Below, in pieces: positions 19,123-40,105 of a stretch of 64,000 bases of DNA. The notes below the pieces were generated by a model. It had not been told where the DNA came from, searched no databases, and was given only the letters and a program-made list of their open reading frames with translations. The stretch lies in IMG/VR virus record IMGVR_UViG_3300020049_006862, positions 1 to 64,000 of that record. The stretch is one strand, 5' to 3'. Every line of letters starts with the position of its first letter. The stretch's first letter is position 1. Source of the stretch: a virus (taxonomy: Duplodnaviria; Caudoviricetes). The position numbers and the translations under genes are program-made.

Positions 19123-19123
19123 C

Positions 19124-20961: not shown

Positions 20962-21318
20962 ATGAAGCGGAGAATTATAGAACCGTGAATTAAGAAATTG
21001 GTCGAGACATTTCCCTTCGTTGTAATGAGAGACCGCTGGGGCAAGCCCCTAGGGGTCTCTTATACCGAAGACGGACTTAAATTAGTTTGTAATTCAGACG
21101 GCAGAATGCCGTATTATTCAAAAGCTATACTACGAGCCAATAAAGGGGAAACTCCGGGTTACACTATTACCGGAGACTTGCGTAAAAACCCCAATATAAT
21201 AGTGGAAAAATTTGTCCCTCGGGACCACAAAAATCCTCGTATAATGCAAGCAGAGATACAGTTCGTAGACAAAGCTCTACGAATGTTGTATGTCCAAAAG
21301 CGGTACGAGCCCAGTTAG
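20962..21318 (+). CDS. hypothetical protein, TGA=Trp at codon 9
   Basis: ATG 20962 with A-rich leader, in frame with track ORF 20998; TGA at 20986. Confidence 0.6.
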
Positions 21319-21333
21319 TGCCAATGGGTATCT

Positions 21334-21408
21334 TTTAGATTTCATAGTCTGGTCAGTACATTACCCTTGAAAAGGTAAGTGTAAAGGGTTCGAATCCCTG
21401 AGCTAAAG
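21334..21408 (+). tRNA. degenerate tRNA with 8-nt anticodon loop (CTTGAAAA)
   Basis: TTACC/GGTAA anticodon stem, AGGG-TTCGAAT-CCCT T arm, imperfect acceptor. Confidence 0.5.
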
Positions 21409-21413
21409 ACTAC

Positions 21414-21588
21414 AAGTAATAGGTGCGAGAGTTCTTTCTTAGGCCGAAGAGAAACGCCAAAGTGGTTTTTCGGTAGAGCAAATTGTCAGGTCTGGCCTGT
21501 TAAGCCAGGTGCCATAAGATTTGTTGGTTCAAGTCCCAGGTGGTCTGAAAACTACTAAAGAGTAGAGCTGTACCCTCGGGTATTACTT
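21414..21588 (+). ncRNA. structured RNA containing a tRNA-Asn(GUU)-type anticodon arm and T loop
   Basis: CTGGC-CTGTTAA-GCCAG, GG-TTCAAGT-CC, outer AAGTAATA/TATTACTT. Confidence 0.5.
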
Positions 21589-21603
21589 TTATGAAATCAA
21601 AAG

Positions 21604-21668
21604 TACATCTATGGGAAAGTATTCGCCCTGCCTGTCACGCAGGTGCGTAACGCTAGTAGATGTCGCCA
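21604..21668 (+). ncRNA. tRNA-Asp(GUC)-like RNA lacking a T arm
   Basis: ACATCTA/TAGATGT stem, CCTGC-CTGTCAC-GCAGG arm, GCCA end. Confidence 0.6.
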
Positions 21669-21704
21669 AAGGAACTGGTTTTTTATAATCAAATTATTAA
21701 CAAC

Positions 21705-22364
21705 ATGAAAGCATGAGCGTTTATAGGTCTGTTCTCTTTGTTCGGCTTAACTAGTCCGGATAATTCGGCACAGTACCGCGAAAGTCTTAATGAAATGGCC
21801 AATAAGATCACACTTTTAGAGTCAAAAGTAGACTCTTTAAATGAATCTAATGGTCGTTTGTGGAAACTCCACCCTTATCTCAACCCAAAATCGGCAGAGG
21901 CTTTGCGTAAGTTCGCCAAAAAAGAAGGCATACTTCCTAACACAAAGTTTAAACTGCTATATAGTTCTGTTAACCCAAAGGTTGACATGGAGCTGTATAA
22001 TGTCTTGACAGCCTACACAGGCCCAGTAGTTGGAGTTACATCCATCTATCGCGAAGGCAGCGGTAAGTCGCAGCACAATCACGGGTGTGCCATCGACATC
22101 AAATGGGATGCTGTTCCTAAATCAGGAGCAATGTCAGGTCGTTCTTTTGCCCGCTGGCTCATCACCGATGAAGGCCAAGCTTGGGAAAAGGAGAACAACC
22201 TGTGAATCCGATTTGAAAACATTCGGGATAAGGAGTTTAGAACCGGAGAATATGCAGAATATTATTGGCATAATAAAGAGGCTACCGGACCACATGTACA
22301 CATTGGACTAAGAAAAGATAAACCAAAACAAGCTTTAGTGGACAAGCTGCTCGCAAGCAGTTAA
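21705..22364 (+). CDS. M15-family Zn peptidase (candidate endolysin), 2 TGA=Trp
   Basis: TSIYR..SQHNHGCAIDI and GPHVHIG; TGA at 21714 and 22203; N-terminal signal-like segment. Confidence 0.8.
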
Positions 22365-22380
22365 AAAGCTTAAAAGGAAA

Positions 22381-24336
22381 ATGAAAAAATTGATTGCACC
22401 GTATTCCGTTGAAGGAATTGAGAATTGTACCATCGATGAGGCAATTGCCTACCTATCGACAAAGCAGTTACTAGGGTTCGATACTGAGACACGACAAGTG
22501 GTTTCAGCAAAAGCTTCGGGTCCAGGGTTGCACCAGGTTATCATGGCACAAATCGGGGATCAAGAACGACAATATATTTTTGACGTGCGTACCCACCTTG
22601 GTGATCTTGCGCCGCTATGAGCAATCTTGGCGTCACCTAATATCATCAAGGTGGGTACTAACTTAAAATATGATTATCTACAGATGTATGGTACCTTTGG
22701 TATCTACATGAACGGGCTTTGCGACATAATGTTGAACGAAATGGTTTTGAATTGTGGACGAGCAGTAAAGAAGAAATTTTATTCGTTGGAAGGAATGTCC
22801 TCTCGATACTTAGGATACAAATTCAATAACCCGAAGCAAGGATCTTTATTTCCTGAAGATAATTTTTCGAAGGACACAAGGTTAGAGTTCATTAACTTAA
22901 AGGATGAACCTTTCAATAACTCACACGTAGAGTATGGAGCTAATGATGTTATCTTGCCTCTGATGATTCTTGAGAAGCAGAAAGTGAAATTGAAGGAAGA
23001 TGAATTAGAGAAATGCGCCGATTTTGAAAACAAGTTTTTACCTGCTTTAGGATATATAGAAACTTGTGGATTCTACATTAATCAGCAGAAGTGGTTAGAT
23101 AATATTGCTAAACATGAGGACAAAGTAATAGAAACTATAGATATACTTGATGAGTATGTAGCTAAGAAGTATCCTAAATTCAAAGGAATAAATTGGGCAT
23201 CTTCTAAGCAAGTTTCTGTCCTATTTAAGAAAGCAGGATACGATTTATCTGTGGTAGACGAACGTAAGAGTACGGAAATGAATACTGTGTACAGAGATTC
23301 AGTTGAGAAGAAGGTAATTGAGAAGTATGCTGAAAGCAAATTGATTTCGAAGTATATAGAATACAAGAAGGCAGCCAAACTATGTTCTACTTATGGAGCT
23401 AAATTCTTAGAATTTGTGAATCCTACTACTAACAGGATGCATTCATCTTATTGGCAAATTGTAGACACTGGCAGACTTTCCTCTTCTAAGGTGAATATGC
23501 AGAATATTCCTAGAGACCCTATGTTCAGAGAACCTTTTCAAGCTGAACCTGGAAATATGATTGTAAAGGCTGATTACTCTCAACAAGAGGTAAGAATGTT
23601 TGCTTCTTATTGTAATGATAAGAACCTTAAGAGCGTATTTGAAGGCAGTAATAGTGATATACACGCCACGTTTGCGGCAAAGCTTTTCAAGAAAGATATA
23701 AAAGATGTAACCTATGAACTCAGACAGCTAGGTAAAATTGCAAACTTTACTCTTATATATGGCGGCGGGGCAGGTAAATTATCCCAAACAATGGGTATTC
23801 CTCTAGAAGAGGCCAAACAAATTGTCAATTCATATTTTTCTTCTTTTCCAGACGCAAGAAAATATTTCGCAAAAACTTACGCCTTAGCCTTGCAAAGAGG
23901 TTATATCCAAATAGATAATGTTATAGGGCGTAAAACTTATATTAGTAAATTCCACGAATACGATCAGCTTAACAAAATACTAGCTGATTCATATAATGTA
24001 AATCTTGTAGGTACAGAGAAAGTAAAAAGAACTGTTGGAACAATTGCTTCTATAATTAAACGGATGTCGTACAACTATCCAGTGCAAGGCGGTTCTGCTA
24101 GCATGACAAAACTTGCACTTATTTATATGTATGAGTGAATTAAATCAAAGAAGCTATTAGGAATAGTAAAGATTGTTACTACAGTACATGATGAGATTGT
24201 GCTTGAATGTCCTGAAGAAATGGTAGATAGAATAATGGATGTATTGGAAACTTCGATGAAAAAAGCATTCAAAACATTTGTCCCGAATGTACCTTCGGGT
24301 TTAACCATTGAAAAGAGCTACATATGGCCGAAATAA
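22381..24336 (+). CDS. polA: family A DNA polymerase with 3'-5' exonuclease, 2 TGA=Trp (651 aa)
   Basis: ExoI FDTET, TGRLSS, motif A DYSQQE, motif B KIANFTLIYG, motif C VHDE after TGA 24136; other TGA at 22618. Confidence 0.95.
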
Positions 24337-25424
24337 CTTACCCCTTACTGCTCCAATATCAGCCAGTAAATCAAACCACAATTACGTGGTTTGCAGCGGT
24401 AACGCTGATTGTACTGATACTCGGATTTGTAGTTACGAAAGTAACTCATCCGAAGGAGCAGATAGGTTTGGTGTTGATGCGAGTCTCATTTGAGGCGCGC
24501 ACAACCGTGTTCTTACTTTTAACGAGCTTCTTTGGAATAGCAGAAGCCCTGACTGCTACAAGTATTGTACCAGTTGGGGAGCCGGAGTTTGCAATTGCTT
24601 CAAGGTTCTTGAATCACATCCTCATTGCTATCGGCTCTGTCGTTAGTATGATGTGTGCCTCATTCCTAACTAAAGAGGCTTTGGAAGAGCGATTGAAAAA
24701 CAAATTGAAGATTGCAGCGAAATCTACGGAACCAATTAGACGTTTGAAAAGTCATCCAATGGCATGGGCTACAATAGGATTGATGGTGATTGTTTCATTA
24801 TTCTGCGCATTTACCAATATCTATTTGATTGCTTTTGCGGCAGGCGATGCACCACTGTTAATCAACTTCCTACTTCTAGGTGGCGGACTCACTCGGATGA
24901 ACACGATTACTTTGGTGTCAACTTTTGTCGGATTCCTACACTTATTCTTTACACTCGTTGAGGCCGCTATGGTCTATAATGAGCAAAGAATCAAAGACTT
25001 CGAAGATAGTCTAGACAAGAAGAAGAAAAGGGATGAGGAAATAGCGGACAAGAACAAGGCGGAGGCCAGTAGGACTCCTCCAGCAGGGGAACATAACTTT
25101 GAAAACGTACTCGAGTGGACGTTTAACCGTTTAGGCGGGAACAAGGAAGATGAAAAATACAAAAAAGCTAAGAATGCAATTTTAAAGAAAATGCAAGAAC
25201 TTGAGGGAGATAAAACAGATGATTCCCGCAAGAAAATTGCAGGCAGCACTACGAACTTATTTAAGCTGTACACCTCTTTACTTCAAGGAGACAAAAGTCG
25301 AACAACTGCTGAGACTGATAACGAAAAACTTGCACGACAAGCAAAAGAAAACAAAGAGATTAGGGATTTATTTGCTAAATCCGTCTCTCAGGGCGGCTTT
25401 GGTTATACCCTCCCAAACTTCTAG
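24324..25424 (+). CDS. multi-TM membrane protein with charged C-terminal domain
   Basis: about 5 hydrophobic segments; ends in slippery site C CCA AAC. Confidence 0.8.
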   Translation: MAEITYPLLLQYQPVNQTTITWFAAVTLIVLILGFVVTKVTHPKEQIGLVLMRVSFEARTTVFLLLTSFFGIAEALTATSIVPVGEPEFAIASRFLNHILIAIGSVVSMMCASFLTKEALEERLKNKLKIAAKSTEPIRRLKSHPMAWATIGLMVIVSLFCAFTNIYLIAFAAGDAPLLINFLLLGGGLTRMNTITLVSTFVGFLHLFFTLVEAAMVYNEQRIKDFEDSLDKKKKRDEEIADKNKAEASRTPPAGEHNFENVLEWTFNRLGGNKEDEKYKKAKNAILKKMQELEGDKTDDSRKKIAGSTTNLFKLYTSLLQGDKSRTTAETDNEKLARQAKENKEIRDLFAKSVSQGGFGYTLPNF

Positions 25425-25438
25425 GCCCTGACGGGCCT
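25412..25438 (+). other. -1 programmed ribosomal frameshift signal
   Basis: X XXY YYZ heptamer CCCAAAC in correct phase, then AGGCCC-tgac-GGGCCT stem. Confidence 0.65.
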
Positions 25439-25948
25439 CGCTGTAACGATGATTTCTGTTTGTGCCGGGAAGTCCGCAATAGGTACGGTAAAATATCTCA
25501 TAGATGCGAAAAGGACGATTGTTCTAAGAATAGATGTCCCAATTGCGAATACAACTTGACTGATGAGAAATATACAGCTTGTCAAGACTGTACACCAGTT
25601 ATGTGCAGAACCTGTTTCGAGCATAAGAAGCACTTTGTTAAATCACCTTGGACTGGGCAACCTATATGCTTTGATTGTTTACCTCAACACACGATCAATT
25701 TAGAAAGAGGAAGTAAAGAGAAGATGTATAATGTTATGAGGGATTATAACCGCCGACAGGAGAAAGGCATGAAAATTTGTACACAGTGTAAAGAAGAATT
25801 TTACGATTTTAATGGTAAACAAAACTTATGCTTTGATTGTAGAAAATTTAAATGCGAGGAATGTGGTAATGTAGTATTCGAGTTAGATCACCAAGGATTA
25901 TGTAATTATTGTTCATCGAAAAACTATAAATTAGACGGAAATATATGA
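25418..25948 (+). CDS. multi-CxxC Zn-finger domain, probably the -1 frame extension of the 24324 gene
   Basis: about 8 CxxC pairs, no ATG start at its 5' end, frame open from 25379. Confidence 0.65.
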   Translation, partial: LLGPDGPRCNDDFCLCREVRNRYGKISHRCEKDDCSKNRCPNCEYNLTDEKYTACQDCTPVMCRTCFEHKKHFVKSPWTGQPICFDCLPQHTINLERGSKEKMYNVMRDYNRRQEKGMKICTQCKEEFYDFNGKQNLCFDCRKFKCEECGNVVFELDHQGLCNYCSSKNYKLDGNI

Positions 25949-27195
25949 GTAACGCAAAAAACGAGCTCCACGACCGCGCCTTCAAAGCCTGAATGGCATC
26001 CGACCGCAAGGGTAGCTTAGTCCTTGCAACAGGGTCTGGAAAAACCCGTTTGGGAGTACTCGCGCTTTTGGAATGCTTAGAGGAAGATCCAAACGCTAAG
26101 GCGTTGATCGTTGTACCTCAAGTGAACCTTAAAGACAACGAATGGCCGAACGAAATTCAAAAATGGGGTGCTGCTCATCTATCGAACCGCATTAGAATTG
26201 ACTGCGTCCAAACGTTATACAAGATACCTGAATCGGAGGTCCAAACTCCGATAGAAGAATATGACCCATGTACGGCTGCCGCAGGTCCAAACTGCGAACC
26301 GTATACTTTAGTGGTTGTGGATGAGATTCACACCACACTTTCGGAGGAATATAGGAAAGTACACGATATACCTCATGTATATAAGTTAGGACTTACAGCT
26401 ACTGTACCTCAGAACGTGGACTATGCTAAGATCCTAGAGGACGTATGCCCTGTCTTATTTACTTATTCAATTGACGAGAGTGTGGCTGATGGAGTAAATG
26501 CTCCATACGAAGTAATCAATGTATCTGTACCATTCACAAAGGACGAGCAAAAGAAATATTTCATTTATAACAACGGATTTAACGAAGCGAGAAGAAATAT
26601 CATGATGAATAAGGGTCTCGAATTTGGAGATTCCTTTACGCTTGCTCGAAGATATAAGGCAGATAGATCACATCCGCTTCAGCCCTACTGTGCATCCTTT
26701 TGGGCGATGATGTCATTGAGAAAATGGCAATGTTATGGCGCTGAAACGAAGAAGGCGGAAACGATGAAACTGCTTATGAAGTATCCAGATTACAAATGAA
26801 TCGTGTTCTCTAAGACCACAAAGACTATTGAGGAAATACACGAATTATGCAAAGCAGCTGGAATAAATAGTGTGGTTTACCATTCTAAGTTAAAGAAAAA
26901 GGAGAAACAAGCGGCCCTTGAAGCAGCCTCCACTCCTGAGTGCAGAGTAATACTTAGCGCTCAAGCTTTGACTACTGGGTACAATCTGCCCGAAATTGAC
27001 GCCGGAATTTGTATATCCGGAGACTCGTCAAGTATCGTTAATACACAGTCGTTAGGCAGGTGTCTCAGATTTGTTCCGGGAAAACGAGCGAAATTTTTCA
27101 ATCTTTATGTCGGAGACACACAAGAAGAAGTGTGGATTCGCAAAAAGACTTCCTCACTCAGTAATGTTACTTGGGTGAAAAATACCGAATTATAA
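25945..27195 (+). CDS. SF2 DExH helicase, 2 TGA=Trp
   Basis: ATGSGKT, DEIH, LTAT, QSLGRCLR; TGA at 25990 (FKA-W) and 26797 (YK-W-IVFS). Confidence 0.9.
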
Positions 27196-28292
27196 TGGCC
27201 ATGAAAAGCGTTCTACAAGAATACTTGTCACAGGGCATTACCTCTCTATCGTCATCGCAGATGGCGCTTGCCAAGAAAAAAGGCTCATGCTTTTTTTGCG
27301 GTGACGATAGAGTTTACCATAATGCCCCATTTTCAAAGGATCTAGGGATGTGTACCGGTTGTTGGACTACTATGAGGGAGTACATATATGATAGAGTAAT
27401 AATGTTACACAGAAATATTGATTCTAATTACGTTAGTTATATAGTGGATTTCATAATGTACGGAACAATTCCTGAACATTGGGATGAATCTTTTCAGGAC
27501 GTAGTAGCACCTCATACGAGTTATAAGCATATACTTAATCCTTCTATTTCTGGACCAATATTTAAAAAAATATGTACTTTTTGTTTGAAACTTTCTCCAG
27601 AGCCTATTAGAGTAATTCATGGAGAAGTTATTGATATCCATGATGGAAGATTAGATAAAGTAAAACCATACATTAATGTACCAGTAGGCGCTGTCGGAAA
27701 GGGTAAGCACACTGTAGGAGCAAAAGTATATACTTGTCAGGCATGTCTGTATCAGATTAAAAGAAATATAAAATTCTACGGAATTCTCCCAGAAGGATCT
27801 TACGAAATATGTTCTAGATGTGAAGGCAAGTACACAATAACTTCTGAGGAAGCAAATAAAAGAGGTGAAAAATTTCGTAATGGAGAAAGAAAGCCGTATA
27901 TTTGTACTACGTGTTTTAATCAGGTACATGGACTTTATACAGACCCTAAATACAACATATACGGAAGAGAAGAACACTATCACTGCTCTTGTGGTAGACC
28001 TGTACTTATTGACTTAATGAATATTACACACAGGGCAGCATTAGAAAATCTTTACTGCCTTTCCTGTAGCACTATCAATACAGGAGTGAGTTTTACTTTT
28101 GAAGGAGATAGGAATGAGACAGTCTCTATACACGTTACAGGAGAACTTTTTGGTGATGTCATCAAATATACGTTTTTAACTATGGTAAAGAATGGACAAG
28201 ACGACAGAACAGAAGTGTTTGAAGTAAGTAACGAAAAATACGATCTCGAATTTGATGCGTTTTGGGCTGGTGTGATATCTTATTTCACATGA
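27195..28292 (+). CDS. Cys-rich Zn-finger protein
   Basis: multiple CxxC; ATGA overlap at 3' end. Confidence 0.75.
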   Translation: MAMKSVLQEYLSQGITSLSSSQMALAKKKGSCFFCGDDRVYHNAPFSKDLGMCTGCWTTMREYIYDRVIMLHRNIDSNYVSYIVDFIMYGTIPEHWDESFQDVVAPHTSYKHILNPSISGPIFKKICTFCLKLSPEPIRVIHGEVIDIHDGRLDKVKPYINVPVGAVGKGKHTVGAKVYTCQACLYQIKRNIKFYGILPEGSYEICSRCEGKYTITSEEANKRGEKFRNGERKPYICTTCFNQVHGLYTDPKYNIYGREEHYHCSCGRPVLIDLMNITHRAALENLYCLSCSTINTGVSFTFEGDRNETVSIHVTGELFGDVIKYTFLTMVKNGQDDRTEVFEVSNEKYDLEFDAFWAGVISYFT

Positions 28293-28555
28293 ATAATTTA
28301 CTTATGGAGAGCTCAAACAGTTTTGTCGTGTTCCCTACAAGTGACGGCAACGACCAGTATCATGTGACGATTATGACATTTGGAGATTTTCCATTTGCTG
28401 ATAACTACGTAAGTGTTCAAATACTCAGACCAAATATTACACAAAGAAATGCTATCTGGGAAGAAGTAGAGACATACAATGGAAGTTACGGTAGTTATGC
28501 AGATATTGTAATAGACGCTTGCCAAAGAATTTATAAACATGCACAATCACACTGA
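28289..28555 (+). CDS. small protein, member of tandem paralog array
   Basis: C-terminal YADIVIDAC motif. Confidence 0.6.
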   Translation: MNNLLMESSNSFVVFPTSDGNDQYHVTIMTFGDFPFADNYVSVQILRPNITQRNAIWEEVETYNGSYGSYADIVIDACQRIYKHAQSH

Positions 28556-28790
28556 TTTTTCAACCGATAATTACACTGATACTTTTGTAACAATTGGAGA
28601 GGTTGTATATATTACAAGATATTTTTACAGCCCAGACAATAAATATTGTTACCAAGTGTGGCAAGAGGAAGTAAAAGCAGAAAACGAACTACGGCGCAGA
28701 ACACATATTTTCGATTTTTTTCCTGATGCCGTCATTAACTCACTAAATTATATACGACATGTACACAGAAGTTCAAGTCATCTTTCGTAG
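28539..28790 (+). CDS. small protein, member of tandem paralog array
   Basis: FPDAVINSL motif. Confidence 0.6.
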   Translation: MHNHTDFSTDNYTDTFVTIGEVVYITRYFYSPDNKYCYQVWQEEVKAENELRRRTHIFDFFPDAVINSLNYIRHVHRSSSHLS

Positions 28791-28989
28791 TGTATTAGGT
28801 ATCGAGAAGAAGTTTGCAATAGATCTAAAATTAATTGAAAACGAAGGATATTGGTACGAAATATACGTACATCCTGATTACGGGGCTTTTCGTGAATTTG
28901 TAGGAGTTAGTACTAATTTTACTGAGACTGTAGCTGACTGTACGATCGCCGCTTGTTATCATATTATCGAATACTTAGACCCTACTTAA
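28759..28989 (+). CDS. small protein, member of tandem paralog array
   Basis: VADCTIAAC motif. Confidence 0.6.
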   Translation: MYTEVQVIFRSVLGIEKKFAIDLKLIENEGYWYEIYVHPDYGAFREFVGVSTNFTETVADCTIAACYHIIEYLDPT

Positions 28990-28990
28990 T

Positions 28991-29245
28991 ATGTACGAAC
29001 AAATGTTATTATGAGACGATGTTCACGAGGGCGAAGTAGACGTAGAATGGGGGTATAACGATGATATTATAAATATAGAATGGTGATTTAGCTCGGAGCA
29101 TAGATACTCATACAGACTTTACGTTTACACATTGACTACGGACAGACCAAAAAATAAACATTATTTAGCCGAAGGACACTATTTCCCTAATTTTCCGGAT
29201 TTGGTTATAGAATGTCTTCGAGTGTACATCGCAAAAACAGAATAA
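28991..29245 (+). CDS. small protein, paralog array member, 2 TGA=Trp (not in ORF track)
   Basis: fills the gap exactly; TGA at 29012 and 29084; FPDLVIECL motif. Confidence 0.65.
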
Positions 29246-29246
29246 T

Positions 29247-29771
29247 ATGGATTTAAAAAGAATAAAAGAAGTAAGTAAAGAGTATCAAATCCCTATAGGA
29301 GCTGTAATTGATATGATACTTTCGCTGGATGACCCTAATATTGAATCAGATTTCGCACTCTCACTGTATGGAAATGGGTATACTTCAACCTTTTCTAAGA
29401 AAGGATTAGAACTTACAGAATCAGGAGAAACCATAGTTACGCAAGCAATTATGAAGTTCCAGGACGGACAATATTTATCGCCAGAATGAAAAGAGAAATT
29501 TGATGCTTGGTACGAATTATTTCCAATAAAAGTAGGGGACAGGAGAGTGCGGACAGGTAAAGTAAAAGCTAGAGAAGAATATTTGAAAATTTTGAACACG
29601 GTAGATCCCGACATACTTTACGCCGCTTTGAAAAAAGATATAAGTTCTAGATCTTACAAAGAACTTTACTATATGCCAGGACCACTTTCTTGGTTAAGAA
29701 ACGAAGAGTACAAAAACCACATTGAAGAAGTATCAGAAGACGCATATTCATATGGAAAAGATTTCGCGTAG
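29247..29771 (+). CDS. putative replication initiator / helicase loader, 1 TGA=Trp
   Basis: FDAWYELFPIKV motif after TGA 29487; directly upstream of DnaB. Confidence 0.65.
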
Positions 29772-30768
29772 CCTCCATTATATATCTTCGGAGCAAGCAG
29801 CTAAAAATGCTGTTAAACTGATCAAAGATAGAAAATCAGGGAAGCTTTCGAGCTTAAAGAGCTGCTGACCTAAATTTGATAAAACATTCCTTAAAGGGAT
29901 TGACTGGAATAGGATGCTGACTATAGCCGGAATTTCAGGAAGTGGTAAGTCGACAGTGTGCCAACAATTAAAGATGTCTTTCTTGGAAAATAACCCAGAT
30001 GAGTCATTTGACATTCTTTCGTTTGAATTTGAAATGTTAACAACAGATCAAATGAGCAGAGCTTTCTCTGCTCGCCTTCAGAAGACAACTCAAGAGTTGT
30101 ACAGTGGTTCGGAAGAGCCGCTTACAGACGAAGATATAGATCAGATTGAGGAGGCTGCGAAAGAAGCGGCCTCCTTACCCATTTTTTACGTAGACACTGT
30201 AGGAAATGTTGACGAGGTAATCAAGACTGTTTGGGAGTTTACTCGTGACAGAGGGCTTATTGAAAATAATAGAGGTTTAGTTATTTCTATTGACCACGCT
30301 CTTTTAGTAGAAGGTAAAGGATATTCTGAATCACAAGAGAAAGCAGTGATTGATCAACTTTGTAAAGCTTTGATTAAGCTAAAGATTAACTATGCCGCTG
30401 TTGGAGGAAGGATAATCATCATACTTGTATCGCAGTTAAATAGAGATATCGAATCTTCTGAAAGAAAAAGCAATAAGAATTTGCATTATCCTACAAAAAA
30501 TGATATCTTTGGGGCATCATCGATTTACCATGCCTCAGACTACTTAATGGTAACTCATAAACCAGCTAATTTAGATGGTATAGGAGAATACTATGGACCA
30601 GAACAGAAGAAATGGGGATTTCCTAAAGGATTCCCTATAAAGAATCCACACGATCCAGAGCAAGCCATGATCTATTGGCACGTAATTAAGAACCGATTCG
30701 GTCCCCTGCGCATACTTGCAATGGGGGACAATTTCAAATTTTCACAAGTTACCGAAGTAAAACTTTAA
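29752..30768 (+). CDS. dnaB: DnaB-like replicative helicase, 1 TGA=Trp
   Basis: AGISGSGKS, FEM, IDH, VSQLNR, KNRFG; LKSC-W-PKFD at TGA 29866. Confidence 0.9.
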
Positions 30769-30851: not shown

Positions 30852-31517
30852 ATGTCGAATTTAATCGGAATTTGCGGAGCATCAGGAACAGGTAAATCTA
30901 CCTCTCTTAGAAATCTGAATCCAGAAGAAACATTTATAATTAATGTCCTAGGAAAGGATCTTCCATGAAAAGGTGCGAAAGCTGCCTTTAACAAAGAGAA
31001 TAAAAACCAAGCGAACAGAAGTAATTGGTCTGAAATCATAGGACTCTTAAACTGAATCAAAGAAAATAGATCAGATATAAAGAACATAATTATTGACGAT
31101 GCTGGTTTTGTAATGTCTTTGGAATACTTCAACAGAGCTATGGAGTCAGGTTACGGTAAGTACACACAACTTGCGCACCACTTTACGGAGATGTTGACTG
31201 TCGCTAAGAGCTTACCAGATGATGTAAACGTTATTGTAACACTGCACGATAGACTTGAAAATACTGATGGAATGTCACCAGTTAGGAAGATCAAAACTGT
31301 AGGACAAATGGTAGACCAGCACTTTGAACCTGCCGCACTGTTTACCGTACTACTATTTACTAAAGTATTGACCTCGAAAGAAGGAAGGAGTTACAAATTC
31401 GTAACTAATTCAGTAAATGAAGATTCTGCTAAATCGCCAATGGGCATGTTTGAGGAACTATACATCGACAACGATATGCAGAAAGTTTTAGAAGCAATAA
31501 AAGAATATAACAATTAA
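30852..31517 (+). CDS. AAA_24/Sak4-like ATPase, 2 TGA=Trp
   Basis: GASGTGKSTSLRNL, KDLP-W-KG, IIIDD, AKSPMGMF; TGA at 30966 and 31053. Confidence 0.85.
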
Positions 31518-31522
31518 TTATT

Positions 31523-32101
31523 ATGGAATACAATCAAACTATCTTGACTTTTGGTGACTTTCTGGAACCAAATAAACTCCAAGGACCGGGCATCTATGAA
31601 GGTGTCACGCTTCAGCCAATTACATTCGGCGAGGGGTTTTTCGAAATTCCGTACGTAACTGCGGATAATCAAATTGTATCGAACCGAGTATGAACTCCGG
31701 ATCTAGAAAAATTGAAAGACAAAGAATTTAAGGAAGCAACTGTAGCGGAAGCATATTCTGCTCGTTGGGGATGGGCTATGCGACATCTGACACATCATGC
31801 ACGGATCTTGTGTCCAAAGGAAGAATGCGAAGCAATTACTGCTACGAATCACATGCAGATGGCTAAGAACATTGTAGCAATGATCAATAAGTATCATGAA
31901 GCTGCTAAGTTGAATATTAAGGTCGGTCTCCGCGATGATGGAATCAATCTTCAATTCGCTTTCAGCCCGGATCAATATGTGGAACTACACGAGGAAGGAA
32001 AACCAACATCTCTTCGCTTCTCAAAGAAGGAGCTTGAGTTGCTGCATCCAGCACCCTCTGATGCGCTGATGGGAAATATCGATTACACAACATTTATGTA
32101 A
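31523..32101 (+). CDS. hypothetical protein, possibly ssDNA-binding, 1 TGA=Trp
   Basis: TGA at 31691; function inferred only from position between Sak4-like ATPase and primase. Confidence 0.6.
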
Positions 32102-32106
32102 CAGCA

Positions 32107-32142
32107 GAAAAGGGAAGGGGGCTAGTCTCTCTTCCCTTTTCT
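32107..32142 (+). terminator. intrinsic terminator
   Basis: AAAAGGGAAGGGGG-ctag-TCTCTCTTCCCTTTT. Confidence 0.7.
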
Positions 32143-32155
32143 AATTTCTACTCCT

Positions 32156-33130
32156 ATGACTTTCACAGACTTTTATACACCATCAAAACAAGAGATCCTT
32201 AACAAAGTAACCGAAGAATCTATCTTCGAACATTTCTTAAACATAGCAGTAGTTCCTGGGCTTATTAATAGCCCATTCAGGCCGGATTCAAATCCATCCT
32301 GTTCCTTCTTACGACTTAGAAATGGTGTACTTTGCTTAGTTGATTGAACTAACTATAATTTCATAGACTGCTTCAAAGCAGTGGCTATGAAAAGGAATTG
32401 CCATTACAATGAGGCAATAAGAGCTGTCTATGAAGCTATGGATCAGCTACGCCCGACTAAGATTGAATTCACAAATAACTCCGACAATTATTCACTTAAG
32501 ATTAAGCTCAAGGAATGGGACGAGGAATCTAAAGCATATTGGCGCAGGTACTATATTAGTGATAATACTCTTACTAAATTTTCGGTATATCCTGTAAGAG
32601 GAGCTTCTATGTCTAGACCAGAATATACTAAGTCTTGGAAATGGTCTAAAGAAGAGCCTATGTTTGCCTATCTTAGAATGAATGGCATCAAACTATATCG
32701 TCCTCATTCTGATAAAAAAAGTAAGTGGCGTTCGTCTAATTGGGGAGACGCGCTATTTAATTATCACAATCTTCCGCCCAAAGGTGATGTTCTTATTATT
32801 ACTTCTTCCGCTAAAGATGCTATGGTTCTAACCGAATGCGGTTTCCATGCTGTAGCCCCTCCTTCTGAGACAGTTAACATTCCAGAAGATATTGTTGCCG
32901 AGCTTAAGTCTCGCTTCTCTCATATCTTTATCTTTATGGATACAGATGAAGCTGGCACTAAAGCCAATATTAAGTTATCCAATATTTTTAATTGTTCCTA
33001 TATTATCATACCTAGTAAATACCACAAAAAAGATATTTCTGATTTTATTTATAAACACGGCCCAGTCAAAACCTTTAGATGCCTAAAGCAATGGATGGTC
33101 CGATCAACCACGAAAAATTATGTCTATTAA
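32156..33130 (+). CDS. DNA primase (Toprim), 1 TGA=Trp
   Basis: SPFRPDSNPSC N-domain, ITSSAKDAM, FMDTDEAG, KDISD; TGA at 32345. Confidence 0.85.
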
Positions 33131-33277
33131 CGAGGAAAGACTTGCTCAGGTTAAGTCTATGATGGAGACTATCCAAAGAGTCATTACAGATCCGGAAATG
33201 CCTGAATTTCTAAGAGAAGATTTGGAACGCCGGGTTGAAAATGCGCGAGATCTTTTAAATGATATAAAACTTTAATT

Positions 33278-33928
33278 ATGCCTACTAATTGGTCTTTAAT
33301 CGAAGGTCTTAAACCTGCTTGGGATTGTTTTATAACGAAAATATATCCTGAATTCATACAAATGGATGCTCAGAAAATGTGCCCACCACCTCAGAAAGTA
33401 CTTAGAGCATTGCAGGAAACTGATATGGAGCAGATAAAAGTGGTAGTTTTGGGAATGGACCCTTATCATAACGGAGCTGCAACCGGGCTCTGCTTTCATG
33501 TAGAGGAAGGTGCTAAAATTCCTGGATCATTAAGAAATATTCAGAGTAAAATATACGAAGAGACTGGGCAAAAAGGAGATTTAGCTTCGTGGCCAGGGCA
33601 AAATGTGTTAATGTTAAATACGGCCCTTACTACTCAAAGAGGTGTGGCAGGAGCAAACATGAAATTATGGGAACCTTTTACTGAAGAAGTACTGAGGTAT
33701 TTGGATACACAAGACGATATCGTATGGCTTCTTTGGGGAGCTAACGCAAGAGACATAGTGAAGAGGATTATCAAGAATCCGACTCACCGATTTATCATTT
33801 CATCACATCCTTCTCCACTGAGTTATCATAAGCCTCTTGGGAAATATCCTGCTTTTAAGGATAGCGTTCCCTTTGGAAAGGCGAATAAGATCTTGGCGGA
33901 AAAAGGTAAAACACCTATACAGTGGTAG
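33278..33928 (+). CDS. ung: uracil-DNA glycosylase
   Basis: GMDPYH, GLCF, SLRNI, LNTALT, LWG, HPSPLS. Confidence 0.95.
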   Translation: MPTNWSLIEGLKPAWDCFITKIYPEFIQMDAQKMCPPPQKVLRALQETDMEQIKVVVLGMDPYHNGAATGLCFHVEEGAKIPGSLRNIQSKIYEETGQKGDLASWPGQNVLMLNTALTTQRGVAGANMKLWEPFTEEVLRYLDTQDDIVWLLWGANARDIVKRIIKNPTHRFIISSHPSPLSYHKPLGKYPAFKDSVPFGKANKILAEKGKTPIQW

Positions 33929-34419
33929 CACTAGAACTTTCCCAACTTGCTAAACCGCTATTGTTTGACTATGAAAATATCAAGTCAACGGTTTGCGTGT
34001 TTGCGAACACTATCCTATTACACGGAGAAATGAAGAAAGGTGGAAGCCTTTACGAAGAGCTGTCCATTGGATATTTCTGTGACATTAACCAGAACATTGT
34101 TGTGGAGGGCTTGAAAACATCGAAAGATGGATTAAGCGCTTTTTACAACCCTGAGTCGGGGGCTTACGGAATTTGCCAGATTGCGCAGCGTAAGACTGAA
34201 GATCTCTACACTTGGATCGAGTTTCATGCCAAATTAGTAGAAAAATTCAAAGACAAAAACGTTGTTTTGTTTCCGATTAAAATTGACGATGAAACACATT
34301 TCGCAACTACTTTTGTTAACATCGTGGATAATTTTGAAGATTCTTTAATAATCCAAGAACTCGCAAAAGACTTCCCTGATAAGGAAACTATAACTAATCT
34401 CTTCACACTAAAATACTAA
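33922..34419 (+). CDS. hypothetical protein
   Basis: 165-aa ORF heading the ligase cluster. Confidence 0.65.
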   Translation: MVALELSQLAKPLLFDYENIKSTVCVFANTILLHGEMKKGGSLYEELSIGYFCDINQNIVVEGLKTSKDGLSAFYNPESGAYGICQIAQRKTEDLYTWIEFHAKLVEKFKDKNVVLFPIKIDDETHFATTFVNIVDNFEDSLIIQELAKDFPDKETITNLFTLKY

Positions 34420-34421
34420 TT

Positions 34422-35228
34422 ATGCTTCTCGCACGAACTTCAGAGCACCAGCGGCATTTTGCCAAAAGATTGAATTCCGGAAAAATTACTGTGAATTTTG
34501 GCTCACCAAAAGTGATCAAAGGACCAGTATTGAATAAGACAGAAAACGTAGTGGCCGCCTTTGATCGGAACAAAGCGAACTTTCTTTTGAATTCCTATGG
34601 AATCAATGTTCCTAAAAGCATTAGGGCACAAGATTTGTTTAACAATGATCAATTGGATTTAAGCCGCTTACAAGTCCGCGGCTTTACATACCCAATCATT
34701 GCCAAAAGAAATGGGCTTTGTACTCACAGAGTCTCGATTCTGAGTAGCATAGACGAATTGATGCGAATTTGCCTTAGTGACAACGTTAAGGAAATCAGCT
34801 TGGAGCAGTACATTCGAAATTGCCAAAGTTATCGGATTTACACGATACCCGCTTTGAGCGGTAAGAGTGTGGATTATACTATCAACGGCCACCCATATCA
34901 AGATTCTTTGGGAATCCCGTTCGCTGTGAAACGTAATTTGGAATTGGCGGAAAACAGCAACATGTATAAAACTAAGAGTTATGAAGTGAACGATGCTCTA
35001 AGCATTGAAAGTATGCCGATAAGCTGGTTGTTGATGCTGCGGAGCGCGGTGAAGGCTACGAGAGTGCTGGGTTTGGATTTTGCTTCAGTTGACATGTTGT
35101 ACAATCCGTATTCTACGGAATACTTTGTAGTTGGAGTTGATCCAGATTGTCCATTTACCTCAAGCAAGGAGATCAACGATCAAATCGCTGAAGCCCTTGT
35201 TCAGGGAATCAAACTCATCCTGCCATGA
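34422..35228 (+). CDS. ATP-grasp (RimK/YheC-like) protein, divergent
   Basis: YPIIAK, EQYI..YRI, LGLDFASVDM; lacks ExN. Confidence 0.65.
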   Translation: MLLARTSEHQRHFAKRLNSGKITVNFGSPKVIKGPVLNKTENVVAAFDRNKANFLLNSYGINVPKSIRAQDLFNNDQLDLSRLQVRGFTYPIIAKRNGLCTHRVSILSSIDELMRICLSDNVKEISLEQYIRNCQSYRIYTIPALSGKSVDYTINGHPYQDSLGIPFAVKRNLELAENSNMYKTKSYEVNDALSIESMPISWLLMLRSAVKATRVLGLDFASVDMLYNPYSTEYFVVGVDPDCPFTSSKEINDQIAEALVQGIKLILP

Positions 35229-36532
35229 TTACCGTATCGAAACATCAGAGTTCTCTAAAGGAGTCGAAGCTGTTTGAAAGGCTTGATCATTATATGCGAA
35301 AATTGGAAAATGATCCTTCTAATTTTTTAGAAAGAAGTCTGGCCAGTAAAAGAGCTGGAGGGAATCTGAAAATTATAAGAGAAAAAGCTTTTGAAACTCT
35401 TTTAGGCATTTTCGAAAGGGATGATATTTTCAAGCAGGTTACATGGGCAACTGAAGATGAGGCTAACTTAATCATTAGGACCAATATTCACAGAACATTA
35501 GGAGCCAGTATGGATGATAACATGCAGCCTTTTGAAGATTCAGGAATACTGTTTTATCAAGATGGTGTTGTAACGAACTACGCTGAACTCGCTAAGACTT
35601 ACGACATTCCGTATATACCAGGAAGACACTCAGATGCTTATGTTGTGTCTCAACTTTTCTTTAAGTTCGGTGAAGAAATTTTCCAATACTTAGAAGGAGA
35701 GTATGCTTTTGTTTGGACAGTTGAAGATGAGATCTTTACTTACAGTAACATCCCATTCTATATCTACCGGAACAATGAAGAATTCCACCTGACAACTTCT
35801 GTCGTAGTTAGTAATTTTCTACGGACTCTGATTCAATCCTTTCCTGAAGAAGAGCAGCTGAATTATGAAGTAATTGATGAGAAAGAACCGCTTATATGGA
35901 TACATACCGAACATAATGCTCAACCGGAATTAAGTCGCACCTACCCTAACACTTTTAATTTTCATTACTCAGGAATAGGAAATAGATTGTTAGACATTGA
36001 TTTCAAGGAGAACTTGACAATGAATGAACAAGGAGCTATAGTACCTGCGGTAGATAGCTTACCTGTTGTGTTGGAGAAAGGAAAGCTCATGTTTTGGAAT
36101 AAAGATAGATGGGTAGATTTATACACGTACATTACAGTATGTACGGACGAACCTGTCATTTATCCCCTTTATTCCGGGGCGAAATACGAAGTGAGTATTA
36201 CTAGGACTACGTTGAAAAAAATAGAAGCTTCCAACAATTGGGAACGAGCTTTATTTAATAAACTAAGCTTTGATCAATACCGGAAGTATTTTAAAGTGCC
36301 AGAAGTATTGCCTACCTATGTACATCCAGCAGAAGATGAAAAAGAATCATTGTTTGTACTTCTCATAAGAGCGCTTGCTAACTGTCCTCGTTACGAGGAT
36401 TCGTTTCAGCAAGGTATAGCTATCTTAGGAGTCGTGTTCAAAACGATGATGGAAAATCATGAAGATAAATCTGCTCGCCGAATCTACAAGGTACTAAAGA
36501 GATTACATGACTACATAAAAGACAAGCAGTGA
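35225..36532 (+). CDS. class II (Ntn) glutamine amidotransferase-like, divergent
   Basis: MQPF, QDGVVTNYAEL, SD, EGEYAFVW; no N-terminal Cys. Confidence 0.55.
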   Translation: MITVSKHQSSLKESKLFERLDHYMRKLENDPSNFLERSLASKRAGGNLKIIREKAFETLLGIFERDDIFKQVTWATEDEANLIIRTNIHRTLGASMDDNMQPFEDSGILFYQDGVVTNYAELAKTYDIPYIPGRHSDAYVVSQLFFKFGEEIFQYLEGEYAFVWTVEDEIFTYSNIPFYIYRNNEEFHLTTSVVVSNFLRTLIQSFPEEEQLNYEVIDEKEPLIWIHTEHNAQPELSRTYPNTFNFHYSGIGNRLLDIDFKENLTMNEQGAIVPAVDSLPVVLEKGKLMFWNKDRWVDLYTYITVCTDEPVIYPLYSGAKYEVSITRTTLKKIEASNNWERALFNKLSFDQYRKYFKVPEVLPTYVHPAEDEKESLFVLLIRALANCPRYEDSFQQGIAILGVVFKTMMENHEDKSARRIYKVLKRLHDYIKDKQ

Positions 36533-37635
36533 TGGAAACCTACAGAGACATAACTTGCAAACTCAGATCAACAACACCGTTTACCGTTAGCGGTAAAACC
36601 ATTACAGGCAGAGAGGGGAAGTTTGAATTCGACCCTTTGAAAGATGCAATGGTGAATGGTGTCTACGTAAAAGGTGTTACTCTCGAGCTACTTGAGGATA
36701 AGCCTTGGAACCACAATGTATATATGTATGCTGATCCAAAACTACATTTAAATATTGATCAGGATACAATTGACCGAAATAAGATGTTCTACTCCAGCCA
36801 GATTACTGGAAATCCTAAGTTTGTATACGATAAGCCTTACGTAACTTTGAAAAAAGAGTACGAAGGATTAAAGTATTTGACTGAAAAGATAACAACAATT
36901 TGGAGTAGTGGAGTGAATCAATTGTATCCGAACGAAATTCTGTACCGGTTAGGGGGACACTTAAACATAGACATTACTGGCTATTGCGTGAAAACAAAAG
37001 ATTATTATGATCCTACCATTTTTCAAGCGGTTCATCAGTTGTCTGAATTTATCCAGTCAAAAGGATCTTACCGGAGAAACTTCGTCAAAGTTCAAGGACT
37101 TACTGCCCACGAATTAGTCGCAGTTTACACAACATTTTGGAAAGTGCAGGACGCAATAAGAGAGTTTATTCCTCCTTCACTTTGCGCAAAACGGCAACCT
37201 TTCTTAGGAAACGGTCATGATGATTTAATCTTGAAAAGATGGCGTAAGCTGTCCGCTCTCGATTCTCAGTTTCCGCTCACCATCGACTCAGATGGTGCAG
37301 TGACATTTAGCTCCCACCCCGCAACGCCCTGTTGCTTTAGGACAATCGCCTGGCTAACTATCTGTTTAGCCATTGTCCAATACGCTAAATATCATTCTGA
37401 CGAAATCATCATATCCGTAGCTATGGGGTACAAAACTTCCCTTACTCGCGACATACTGAAGTGGGCCGAACAACAATGCACTACTACTGAAGCTACTGAA
37501 TTGCTTCAGAAGATAACTCGGTATGTTCATAACGAAAGTGACGAGCATATCCGAATATTGACCGAAGTACCTCTTCCACAAAGAATGAGATACTACGAAG
37601 ATAATTATTTTGATAAACCCTATAATGAAATATAA
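36529..37635 (+). CDS. amidoligase-like protein, divergent
   Basis: GGHLNI, TVEFR-like AVTFSSHPAT, AWLTICLAIV. Confidence 0.5.
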   Translation: MMETYRDITCKLRSTTPFTVSGKTITGREGKFEFDPLKDAMVNGVYVKGVTLELLEDKPWNHNVYMYADPKLHLNIDQDTIDRNKMFYSSQITGNPKFVYDKPYVTLKKEYEGLKYLTEKITTIWSSGVNQLYPNEILYRLGGHLNIDITGYCVKTKDYYDPTIFQAVHQLSEFIQSKGSYRRNFVKVQGLTAHELVAVYTTFWKVQDAIREFIPPSLCAKRQPFLGNGHDDLILKRWRKLSALDSQFPLTIDSDGAVTFSSHPATPCCFRTIAWLTICLAIVQYAKYHSDEIIISVAMGYKTSLTRDILKWAEQQCTTTEATELLQKITRYVHNESDEHIRILTEVPLPQRMRYYEDNYFDKPYNEI

Positions 37636-38014
37636 GAATAAAATCAGTGGAGGCTTCAGATCCGGACTTGAAGAATGATGCTCGGAACACCTACACAAAA
37701 ACGATATCAAATTCTGGTATGAGGGTAAAAAGTTTACTCTTGTACCAGGATTTGAATCGACTAGTCCCTCATTTGAAGTAGTCGGAAAAACTAAGAAATA
37801 TAAATCAGTTACTACTAAGATCCGTCCAATAACATATACGCCCGATTTTGTCGGGGATTCTTGAGTAATAGAGACTAAGGGATTTTTAACCCCTGACGCC
37901 AAACTCAAATGGAAGTTATTTAAAAAGTATCTAACTGATAATAAGATATTTTGTCTGTTATTCATGCCTAGAAATAGGAAGCAGATAGAAGATACAATTA
38001 ATACTATATTATGA
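37625..38014 (+). CDS. T7 endonuclease I-like Holliday junction resolvase, 2 internal TGA=Trp (not in ORF track)
   Basis: FRSGLEE-W, YTPDFVGDS-W-VIETKG; ends at TGA 38014, or TAA 38068 if read through. Confidence 0.85.
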
Positions 38015-39036
38015 AACACTGAGAAGATCCCAAAAGGTCAGAAATCTATTATCAAACTCCTGGAATAAGCAACTCGCTTCTAAAGCTGGTTAGCACTCCT
38101 CTACTTCTTCAACAGAAATTAAAAGGCGAGCATGTACAAGCTGACAAAGAACATTTTAGAGTAGGAAAGGCTATCGACTGTTTACTTACATCACCAGAAC
38201 TCTGAGAAGCAGAGTTTGATGTAGTATCAGCTGAACGTCCTTCCGGTCTCTTAGGCCTCTTTGCAGATAACTTGCCAGAAGGTCTAACACCTCTCTCCTC
38301 GCTCGAGCTATACGAAGAAGCATACAATGCTTCGGGCTTCAAGCTTCCACTAGAAAGAGTAGTTAACATCTTCTGATCTAAAGGTGATAATGTATTTTAC
38401 TATGAGAAAAAATACGAAAAATCAAACAAAACCATCTTATCACGAGGTGAGATGGAGAAGGTCGAACTTGCAGTAGATCAGCTAAAGAAGGCTGATTATA
38501 CACACAAGTATTTTTGGCCTGCTGATAACACACGATTGATTACTCAAGTACCCATATACTTTAAGTACAAAGATTTAGATTGTAAAGGCCTTCTTGATGG
38601 CATCGTTATTGATGACGAAAAGAAAACTATACTTCCGTATGATTTGAAATCGTCTTCTTGGGGAATTAGAAACTTCCCTCTCGTTTATAAAAGATTTAAA
38701 TACTATAGACAAGCAGCGTTTTATCAACACGCTGTTCTTAATCATTTTATTCCAGAAGAAAATTTACAAGGTTACGAACTATTACCATTCACTTTTATAG
38801 TGACTTCCTCGAAACGAGGAATACCGGAAATGCCTATTATCTATAAAGTAGAATCTCAGGACTTCAGATTTGGTATGCAGGAAATAGATGACGCAATAGA
38901 ACAATATAAGTGGCACGTAGAGAACAACTACTTTGACATGTCTAAGGAGCAGTTTGAAAACAGCTCCGAATATTGGGTTAGTTATTTTTCACCCTCGAAA
39001 GAGGATCAAATCTTTGAAGATGAAACAATCAGTTAA
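38011..39036 (+). CDS. PD-(D/E)xK exonuclease (RecE/ExoVIII-like), 3 TGA=Trp
   Basis: ISNSLLK, GKAIDCLLT, KGLLD..DLKS, YYRQAAFY; TGA at 38020, 38203, 38374. Confidence 0.85.
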
Positions 39037-39259
39037 TGACAAGATTCTTGAACCAATAGTAACATCTGCTTACTTTGGATTTTTTGCTTTCTGGATCGTG
39101 CGATGCTTTCCAACTAGATGGGATTTCGCCGCAAATCGATATAACGAACATATTGTATGGGGAAGATTTGGAATGGAAGCTTGCGGAATCGCATTCTTAT
39201 GCGTATTTATTTACGTAATAATTACTGTTTTTGAAGAAGCACACAAAAAATACAACTAA
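39020..39259 (+). CDS. two-TM membrane protein
   Basis: hydrophobic segments. Confidence 0.55.
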   Translation: MKQSVNDKILEPIVTSAYFGFFAFWIVRCFPTRWDFAANRYNEHIVWGRFGMEACGIAFLCVFIYVIITVFEEAHKKYN

Positions 39260-39261
39260 CG

Positions 39262-39495
39262 ATGAATGGCTTTAGAACAACCCAGAAAAATTTGTCTCGC
39301 TTCATTAAAGAGCAAGGAGAGTTAATTCTTTGGTCTATGTACTCTTTAGTACCTATAGGCGTCAGTATGGCTATCTGCGACATGCGTGAATTGCATTTTG
39401 GGTGGAGGCTTGCTTTGTGTGCAGGTACATTTTGCTTGGCGATGCGCTTTGGGGCTGGAATTAGATGGATCGTTGTTAACAGAGAACGCGATTAA
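39262..39495 (+). CDS. two-TM membrane protein
   Basis: hydrophobic segments; terminator-like hairpin at 39518-39558. Confidence 0.55.
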   Translation: MNGFRTTQKNLSRFIKEQGELILWSMYSLVPIGVSMAICDMRELHFGWRLALCAGTFCLAMRFGAGIRWIVVNRERD

Positions 39496-39604
39496 AAATA
39501 TAGTGTAGGTGATGAGAGGAGGGGTAGCATCGAAAGGTGTTGCCCCTTTTTTATTTTAGTTAACTTATTCCACTAAAGCTTTTTACTATTAAAAAAGAAT
39601 TATT

Positions 39605-40105
39605 ATGGAAAAAAAGAAATTGAATAAGAGTGCAGCCTTCGTGTTGCCTCGGACTGGTTTGGATTATACCAAGTTGGTAGGGTTGGGAATCGATAATACT
39701 TATTTGTTCTCGACAAATTCAACAGAACCAGAGATGCACGTAGTGGTCAGTTCTACACTGACTCCTGAACAAGATCAATGAATGAAAACTGCTGGAAAGA
39801 ACTATAAAGAAACACGCACTCATCAGGAGAAGCCTGTGTACGTATACTCTTTCACGGAGGAGGACCAAAAGAATATTGTGACTCCGTTTCTCAAAGGAAA
39901 GTATTCAGAAATTGATCGTGACTATGTAAAAACATTTGACCGTTGGCAAGTTGTTGACGGTTTCTACGAACCCTCTAAGACATACATGATCTTTACTAAA
40001 GATACTCGTCTGAAAGAAGATTGGGAACAAAAGATTGGAGTGGAATTCACAGATGAACAAGAGGTATGGTCTCGACCTTTAATCGAGAATGAAACCTTAG
40101 CCTAG
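39605..40105 (+). CDS. hypothetical protein, 1 TGA=Trp
   Basis: ATG 39605 in frame with track ORF 39782; TGA at 39779. Confidence 0.7.

Follow-up and report, generated by a model that had tools for sequence, protein, structure and literature searches.

In the virus record IMGVR_UViG_3300020049_006862 (a single record of 110,204 bp, linear according to IMG/VR and 66% complete according to CheckV), of which the first 64 kb are hereafter called the window, the replication module between positions 20962 and 40105 carries in-frame TGA codons that are read as Trp, and these codons are concentrated near the 5′ ends of the genes, within the first 80 codons or so. The same bias recurs in related phages, controls with other codons and other genes of the same genome do not reproduce it, and a tRNA with a UCA anticodon is encoded elsewhere in the record. 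The window phage is a putative crAss-like phage, as suggested by its DNA polymerase A (PolA) matches, its two-block layout and a giant open reading frame (ORF).

Recoded genes of the replication module

ORFs were called under genetic code 4 and ranked with a hexamer model trained solely on code-11 ORFs. The curated set consists of 13 plus-strand genes with in-frame TGA, holding 22 TGA and 43 TGG codons in total, and the first Trp codon is TGA in every one of them (13/13; exact within-gene shuffle, P = 7.1e-7). An earlier reading of the bare sequence, the original prediction, had proposed this rule from a hand count of 21 TGA and 43 TGG in 13 genes, with a chance of roughly 1e-6, and the recount agrees with it but for one TGA. 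When the longest ORFs are taken without curation, the first Trp is TGA in 13 of the 15 genes that hold both Trp codons (5.4 expected, P = 3e-5). In the two exceptions (27171-28412 and 34422-35258), TGA is present solely at the apparent true stop: low-complexity sequence lies beyond the first TGA of the former, and the TGA of the latter overlaps the following ATG as ATGA. Additionally, a GATase-like ORF whose codon-15 TGA falls upstream of its likely start (ATG 35225) was excluded from the count, and an endonuclease I-like gene that was missed by the ORF caller adds one case of TGA as first Trp. The 13 genes, all on the plus strand, are the following, with their Trp codons in gene order (A, TGA; g, TGG):

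20962-21318, +, g20962, function not known; Ag; first TGA at nt 20986 (residue 9)
21660-22364, +, g21660, function not known, hydrophobic N-terminus; AggggAg; first TGA at nt 21714 (residue 19)
22381-24336, +, PolA with 3′-5′ exonuclease domain; AgggAg; TGA at nt 22618 and nt 24136
25945-27195, +, SF2 helicase; AggggAgg; TGA at nt 25990 (residue 16) and nt 26797
28991-29245, +, g28991, function not known, no homologue found, start abutting the preceding stop; AggA; first TGA at nt 29012 (residue 8)
29247-29771, +, g29247, function not known; Agg; TGA at nt 29487 (residue 81)
29722-30768, +, DnaB-like helicase; Agggg; TGA at nt 29866 (residue 49, KSC-W-PKF)
30852-31517, +, Sak4-like AAA_24 ATPase; AgA; TGA at nt 30966 (residue 39, LP-W-KG) and nt 31053
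31523-32101, +, SSB-like gene, no Pfam match; Agg; TGA at nt 31691 (residue 57; F, Y or W in relatives)
32156-33130, +, Toprim primase; Aggggggg; TGA at nt 32345 (residue 64)
37625-38068, +, endonuclease I-like gene, probable start ATG 37625, holding GDS-W-VIETKG; AgAgA; first TGA at nt 37676
38011-39036, +, PD-(D/E)XK exonuclease (DUF3799); AAAgggg; TGA at nt 38020, 38203 and 38374
39605-40105, +, g39605, no Pfam match; Aggg; TGA at nt 39779 (residue 59)

The three motifs in which Trp had been expected at a TGA (KSC-W-PKF, LP-W-KG and GDS-W-VIETKG) are all present, VHDE lies downstream of W586 in PolA, and the primase has, as had been noted, one TGA followed by seven TGG. Concerning the names that had been given to the genes, the “resolvase” is the endonuclease I-like gene and the “initiator” is probably g29247, but the name “M15 peptidase” (probably g39605) was not confirmed.

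Searches with PolA in Logan assemblies provided the relatives R1 (48% identity) and R2 (39%), as well as the non-recoded R3 (32%). Each early TGA of the window phage is preceded by protein sequence that is conserved in R1 or R2 and, consequently, the early TGAs do not lie upstream of the real starts. Pfam domains run across several of these codons: the exonuclease domain of PolA (residues 18-198) spans residue 80, and the Sak4 domain (residues 5-141) spans residue 39. Some 15 homologous sites alternate between TGA and TGG from phage to phage and carry W, F or Y in non-recoded relatives, so the decoding as Trp assumed in the original prediction is sustained by the alignments that had been proposed as its check. 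For instance, the W codon of the motif IEP-W-IKK in g20962 is TGA in R1 and TGG in R2, and the column of residue 81 in g29247 holds TGA in R1 and TGG in the non-recoded R3. Residue 49 of DnaB is encoded by TGG in R1, and its next conserved Trp is TGG in the window phage and TGA in nine relatives. Residue 16 of the SF2 helicase falls in a conserved Trp column, with TGA in four relatives; residue 39 of the Sak4-like ATPase is W or F in relatives, and residue 64 of the primase is TGG in R1 and F in most relatives. The three TGAs of the exonuclease are all TGA in R1, and those at 38203 and 38374 correspond to TGA, W or F in farther relatives. In PolA, the TGA at nt 24136 (residue 586, upstream of VHDE) is W in most homologues and the conserved C-terminal W is encoded by TGA in R1, while the TGA at nt 22618 (residue 80, within the exonuclease domain) corresponds to K in relatives. 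Judging from this pattern of TGA, TGG and aromatic residues, TGA is a Trp codon; readings as Gly (code 25), Cys or Ser are ruled out by the same pattern.

Assembly errors do not account for these codons, because contigs from other sequencing runs retain TGA at 22203, 22618 and 38374, the three checkable sites, all with thin cover. The base that follows in-frame TGA is a purine in 82% of cases, compared with 66% for TGG (P = 0.008). In-frame TGA rarely precedes T or C, and the true TAA and TAG stops most often precede T.

A 5′ zone shared with relatives

An alignment of DnaB led to 26 further loci, eight of which are TGA-recoded. Eleven replication gene families were aligned over 24 genomes and their ragged N-termini were trimmed; 11 of these genomes are recoded (the window phage and ten relatives). 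In the trimmed cores, the first Trp of the window phage is TGA in 10/10 genes (P = 5.5e-6), and the ten recoded relatives, when pooled, have TGA first in 43 of 65 genes versus 24.3 expected (P = 6.5e-7). Moreover, the odds ratio (OR) between the early and late parts of genes is greater than 1 in 10 of the 11 recoded genomes, the remaining one, L025, having a value of 1.0. TGA represents about 50% of the Trp codons of the recoded genomes up to codon 80 and about 15% beyond it. In bins of 10 codons, its share is 0.40-0.70 up to codon 80 and mostly 0.08-0.26 afterwards, with one 20-codon bin at 0.36. If each alignment column is counted once, which removes most of the pseudo-replication due to shared ancestry, TGA is present in 48 of 71 early columns versus 32 of 108 later ones (OR 5, P = 7e-7). 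The shift is found both at conserved Trp columns (TGA:TGG of 37:36 early and 25:155 late) and at variable ones (48:41 and 25:87, respectively). Thus, a 5′ zone of about 80 codons describes the pattern better than a strict first-Trp rule does, and in the window phage, an extreme case, the zone takes the form of such a rule. In R2, about 300 codons are inserted in the polymerase domain of PolA (L006:1334-4180), at a position that suggests an intein, and TGA is still the first of the 16 Trp codons of this gene.

Other codons that differ only in a final A or G show nothing similar. The A-ending codons of AAA/AAG, GAA/GAG, CAA/CAG, TTA/TTG and AGA/AGG are not enriched at the 5′ end (OR 0.6-1.15), compared with an OR of 5.8 for TGA/TGG (P = 3.5e-16); as the five other pairs are flat, a compositional gradient is excluded. 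The late genes show no significant 5′ shift either. In the late-strand genes of the window phage, the first Trp is TGA in 3 of 16-17 genes versus about 5 expected, with an early/late OR of 0.7. Likewise, 14 late-gene families from six complete genomes have TGA shares of 0.15 early and 0.08 late, a difference that is not significant and for which power is low. When the early parts of genes are compared directly, TGA is richer in replication than in late genes (OR 6.3, P = 1e-7). Within the genome, the first-Trp bias is consequently confined to the replication module. The expectation that it would extend to the whole genome and to relatives therefore held in part: the relatives do show it, but the late strand does not, and in relatives the strict first-Trp rule is loosened.

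Decoding of TGA and explanations of its placement

A scan of the genome outside the window found the suppressor that had been foreseen, a phage tRNA(UCA) at genome positions 101332-101425 (minus strand), which is the only UCA tRNA found in the 110-kb record. It was detected in a permissive Rfam scan as a 26-bit tRNA-Sec match, below the gathering score, and it is missed by ARAGORN, which reports only one aberrant tRNA. The anticodon loop of the gene is CUUCAAA, its acceptor stem has 7 bp, CCA is encoded and the variable arm is long; the acceptor identity elements (A1-U72 and G73) fit TrpRS. We infer that it is charged with Trp, since the alignments argue for this amino acid and not for Ser. 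Next to it, at genome positions 100470-100928 (minus strand; L010:16670-17128), there is a tmRNA (RF00023, 49.2 bits, above the gathering score) with a G3.U70 acceptor, and this cassette lies directly upstream of a phage Cpn60/GroEL gene. Two relatives, G001 and G002, have ordinary, Trp-like tRNA(UCA) genes and a third, G004, has a long-arm UCA tRNA; in all three, the gene is near the start of the late-strand block. By contrast, the inhibition of RF2 that had been offered as another way of opening the recoded genes finds no support, as neither release factor nor TrpRS genes were found across the 110-kb record, which is 66% complete.

A second tRNA-like gene is located within the window at 8416-8490 (plus strand; Rfam tRNA, 44.8 bits), with the label Cys(ACA) in ARAGORN, a G.G mismatch in the anticodon stem, a C as discriminator base and a G at position -1. 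Its homologue in G005 (2433-2510) has the same D and T arms and a different aberrant anticodon arm (“Gly(ACC)”). The reading of UGA by this ACA tRNA through inosine 34 was considered and dropped, given the existence of a proper UCA tRNA, alignments that indicate Trp and not Cys, and the G.G mismatch.

The explanation that we favour, and that we consider reasonably probable, is that the phage tRNA(UCA) reads TGA as Trp and that TGA in replication genes is tolerated near the 5′ end and purged further in. Near the start, TGA would be as acceptable as TGG; deeper TGAs would be eliminated. Decoding would compete with termination, presumably through release factors, so an early failure would probably cost merely a short peptide, whereas with a later one synthesis would be wasted and truncated fragments of the helicase, primase, polymerase or nucleases would be set free. 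Without UGA decoding, translation of the 13 genes cannot proceed beyond codon 4-81, so the output of these genes depends on the suppressor. Each gene would pay a toll at its 5′ end and yield protein in proportion to suppressor activity, with one toll for most genes and three for the two nucleases, and the timing of tRNA expression would presumably also contribute. Among early Trp codons, TGA has a share of 0.5-0.67, equal to that of the A-ending form in other A/G codon pairs (0.55-0.72), as simple 5′ tolerance predicts. Tolerance is also supported by the early Trp sites common to the window phage and R1, at which the two coincide no more frequently than expected from independent draws. Nevertheless, several points weigh against this explanation. 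The 80-codon boundary was chosen after inspecting the window genome, with finer bins in relatives showing the same step, and, given the common ancestry of the relatives, P values pooled over genomes exaggerate their independence. Whole-genome calls in five complete relatives yield weak, individually non-significant shifts (OR 1.6-2.4), because TGA-free early genes dilute the signal. The long variable arm of tRNA(UCA) is a SerRS-type feature. Finally, cost minimisation alone does not explain why late genes lack tolerance to early TGA, for which it must further be assumed that selection on late genes favours maximal yield.

An evolved lock or timer, in which selection demands that each replication gene has one or more suppressor-dependent TGAs close to its start, is possible but in our opinion doubtful. 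Replication would then be licensed once the phage tRNA(UCA) accumulates, and the number of TGAs would set relative gene output. Several results point in this direction: Trp codons are more abundant in the first 80 codons in recoded genomes than in non-recoded relatives (2.18% vs 1.36%, P = 7e-4), without a later excess; in DnaB and Sak4, TGA shifts among neighbouring Trp sites with one retained per gene; and in three phages the early TGA of PolA is found at three different positions that are neither homologous nor Trp sites, one of which is an insertion of 3 codons, although PolA in relatives often begins its Trp series with TGG. Genes without early TGA are also fewer than under label shuffles (20 vs 28.2, P = 0.0005; 14 vs 23.6 without the uracil-DNA glycosylase, UDG), but this deficit is inflated by shared ancestry and is not significant in any single genome. 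Similarly, the 13/13 of the window phage exceeds the prediction of the zone model with p ~0.6, but this genome may be an extreme case that drew attention. A lock is further opposed by the early TGA share, which equals the neutral A/G expectation, and by the presence in the replication module of UDG, g24324, g36529 and the amidoligase module, all of them without TGA. Its most specific version, which we put forward tentatively and regard as unlikely, is that one clade of crAss-like phages from freshwater and sludge retains one or more early UGAs in each replication gene, with a lost one restored at a neighbouring site, so that the level of phage tRNA(UCA) licenses replication and doses the polymerase, helicases, primase and nucleases. 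Consequently, the idea that selection keeps an early TGA as a gate survives in its first half (the 5′ placement is real, module-specific and recurrent, and derives neither from composition nor from miscalled starts), but its selective upkeep as a lock is doubtful.

The tolerated placement that we favour overlaps with a slow-codon ramp, and sequence alone cannot separate the two. In such a ramp, TGA, as the slowest codon, read by one scarce tRNA, would be kept to the 5′ region, where pauses space out the ribosomes and restrain initiation, and away from downstream positions, where they would lead to collisions. The plateau and drop of the TGA share are indeed ramp-like, a tmRNA gene adjoins that of tRNA(UCA), and the effect does not depend on the conservation of the Trp site. 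However, no other A/G codon pair is shifted to the 5′ end, late genes, presumably the most heavily translated, have no TGA ramp, and published slow-codon ramps extend over about 30-50 codons, versus 80 here, which together make this explanation improbable. Still harder to maintain is that there is no biology behind the pattern, but chance, shared ancestry, a compositional gradient or code-4 ORFs over-extended upstream. Longest-ORF calls under code 4 do extend too far upstream (TGAs of doubtful status are found there in the GATase-like ORF, g19668 and 41019-41474), and both the region and the test were picked after the data had been seen. Against this, the protein sequence N-terminal to the TGAs is conserved, the effect survives in trimmed alignment cores and conserved Trp columns, the late genes, called in the same manner, are not biased, composition controls are flat, and the pattern repeats in ten relatives from other samples. 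This possibility is, therefore, largely refuted, and we consider it very improbable.

The closest analogue of the placement of TGA near the gene start is the bldA tRNA-Leu(UAA)/UUA system of Streptomyces, in which UUA codons are extremely biased towards the start of the coding sequence, a bias explained by minimal waste (PMC10732093); the same system is also a precedent for gating by a tRNA with 5′-biased codons. In both cases, a rare codon restricted to some of the genes is read by a single tRNA dedicated to it. However, UUA is a sense codon used in a cellular developmental programme, whereas here a stop was reassigned in a virus that supplies the tRNA, and failure thus means termination by a release factor and not stalling as with bldA. 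If the clade-wide licensing described above were true, it would represent a virus-encoded counterpart of bldA control acting on a reassigned stop codon, with the tRNA encoded in a tmRNA cassette in the window phage. A looser analogue is prfB, the gene for RF2, whose early in-frame UGA also makes output depend on termination versus alternative decoding. In prfB, though, there is a +1 frameshift at CUU UGA with an upstream Shine-Dalgarno-like element, while in the replication genes the zero frame continues. A prfB-type frameshift was excluded here, since the zero frame is conserved across every TGA and the preceding codons are diverse, with CTT not among the commonest. Amber and opal nonsense mutants of T4 and lambda grown on suppressor hosts likewise make the expression of essential genes conditional on a suppressor tRNA. 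Unlike the natural, position-biased TGAs found in many genes of a phage with its own tRNA, these mutations arose in the laboratory, lie at arbitrary positions and depend on a host suppressor.

Among recoded phages, earlier studies describe recoding by gene class, with late and lysis genes recoded and replication genes “variably” so (Borges et al., bioRxiv 10.1101/2021.08.26.457843; Yutin et al., PMC7886860). The window phage resembles these suppressor-tRNA phages in having in-frame TGA as Trp, a phage tRNA(UCA) and one standard-code block, and recoding was proposed there as a means of timing expression. It differs from them in that recoding stands out in the replication genes and follows position, within the first 80 codons or so, and also in the unusual long variable arm of its suppressor tRNA. 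Neither the Borges preprint nor the titles and abstracts of other recoding papers contain a statement on positional bias within genes, so a positional bias of a recoded stop within phage genes appears to be new, with no earlier report found in those sources. Earlier evidence for recoding as timing derives from which genes carry recoded stops, and position within genes is evidence of a different kind. A positional bias implies that selection sees where the recoded stop lies, which is sensible only if, for part of the infection, decoding is not complete or depends on conditions. Attention is thereby moved from lysis and structural genes to the replication machinery. In practical terms, these are exactly the genes that would be split or given wrong starts by gene callers in which the code is switched by genome block.

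TGA-free genes and genome context

Other parts of the window use TGA differently, as follows:

1-19600, +, early block; no internal TGA, about 72 TGG
33278-33928, +, UDG; seven TGG, zero TGA
33922-37635, +, amidoligase/GATase module of four genes; no internal TGA
41995-60528, −, giant late-strand ORF of 6177 codons; 5 TGA among 57 Trp codons, scattered, without 5′ bias

Three coding regimes may thus be distinguished: early genes without internal TGA, replication genes with TGA almost exclusively in the first 80 codons or so, and late genes in which TGA is sparse and unplaced. In the early block, TGA is limited to probable gene ends or doubtful ORFs, which makes this block compatible with the standard code. 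Together with the genes that still end in TGA, it lends indirect support to a host with the standard code, in which the phage would change code in the course of infection. The orthologue of UDG is also devoid of internal TGA in all six recoded relatives where it was found (L035 has one, at the gene end), which suggests that this gene of the replication module has to be expressed without the suppressor. The TGAs at the ends of the amidoligase/GATase genes overlap the next starts (ATGA at 35225-35228 and GTGA at 36529-36532), and these genes seem to use TGA as a true stop. If so, TGA would both terminate and encode in a single genome and, with the suppressor active, the amidoligase/GATase proteins would gain extensions of 7-10 residues.

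The plus-strand genes occupy 1-41.9 kb and the remainder consists of minus-strand genes, including the 6177-codon ORF. The closest full-length PolA matches in a phage collection (29-33% identity) include IAS virus and uncultured crAss phages, and the DnaB relatives were found in IMG/VR genomes of 90-105 kb that share the two-block layout. Near-identical sequence is present in freshwater, sludge and wastewater metagenomes. Other searches returned little: a PolA query against IMG/VR gave two distant fragments only, megablast of the replication module against phage genomes gave no match, and g24324, a TGA-free neighbour, has no homologue besides itself among 5.8 billion proteins. Between g24324 and the SF2 helicase there are 520 nt without a called gene (25424-25945), which are overlapped by the alternative-frame ORFs 25449-25703 and 25460-26020.

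Where the convergent gene blocks meet (41894-41997), the same weak Rfam match is obtained on both strands, which indicates a symmetric hairpin, probably a bidirectional terminator. Outside the window, the late block has up to five matches to group I introns (genome positions ~88170-91190, minus strand; L010:4369-7392), one of them above the Rfam gathering score (61.8 bits) and the others at 24-42 bits. Additionally, an ORF of the same block (97178-98746, minus strand; L010:13378-14946) has Hint and LAGLIDADG homing-endonuclease domains, from which it is an intein-containing gene.

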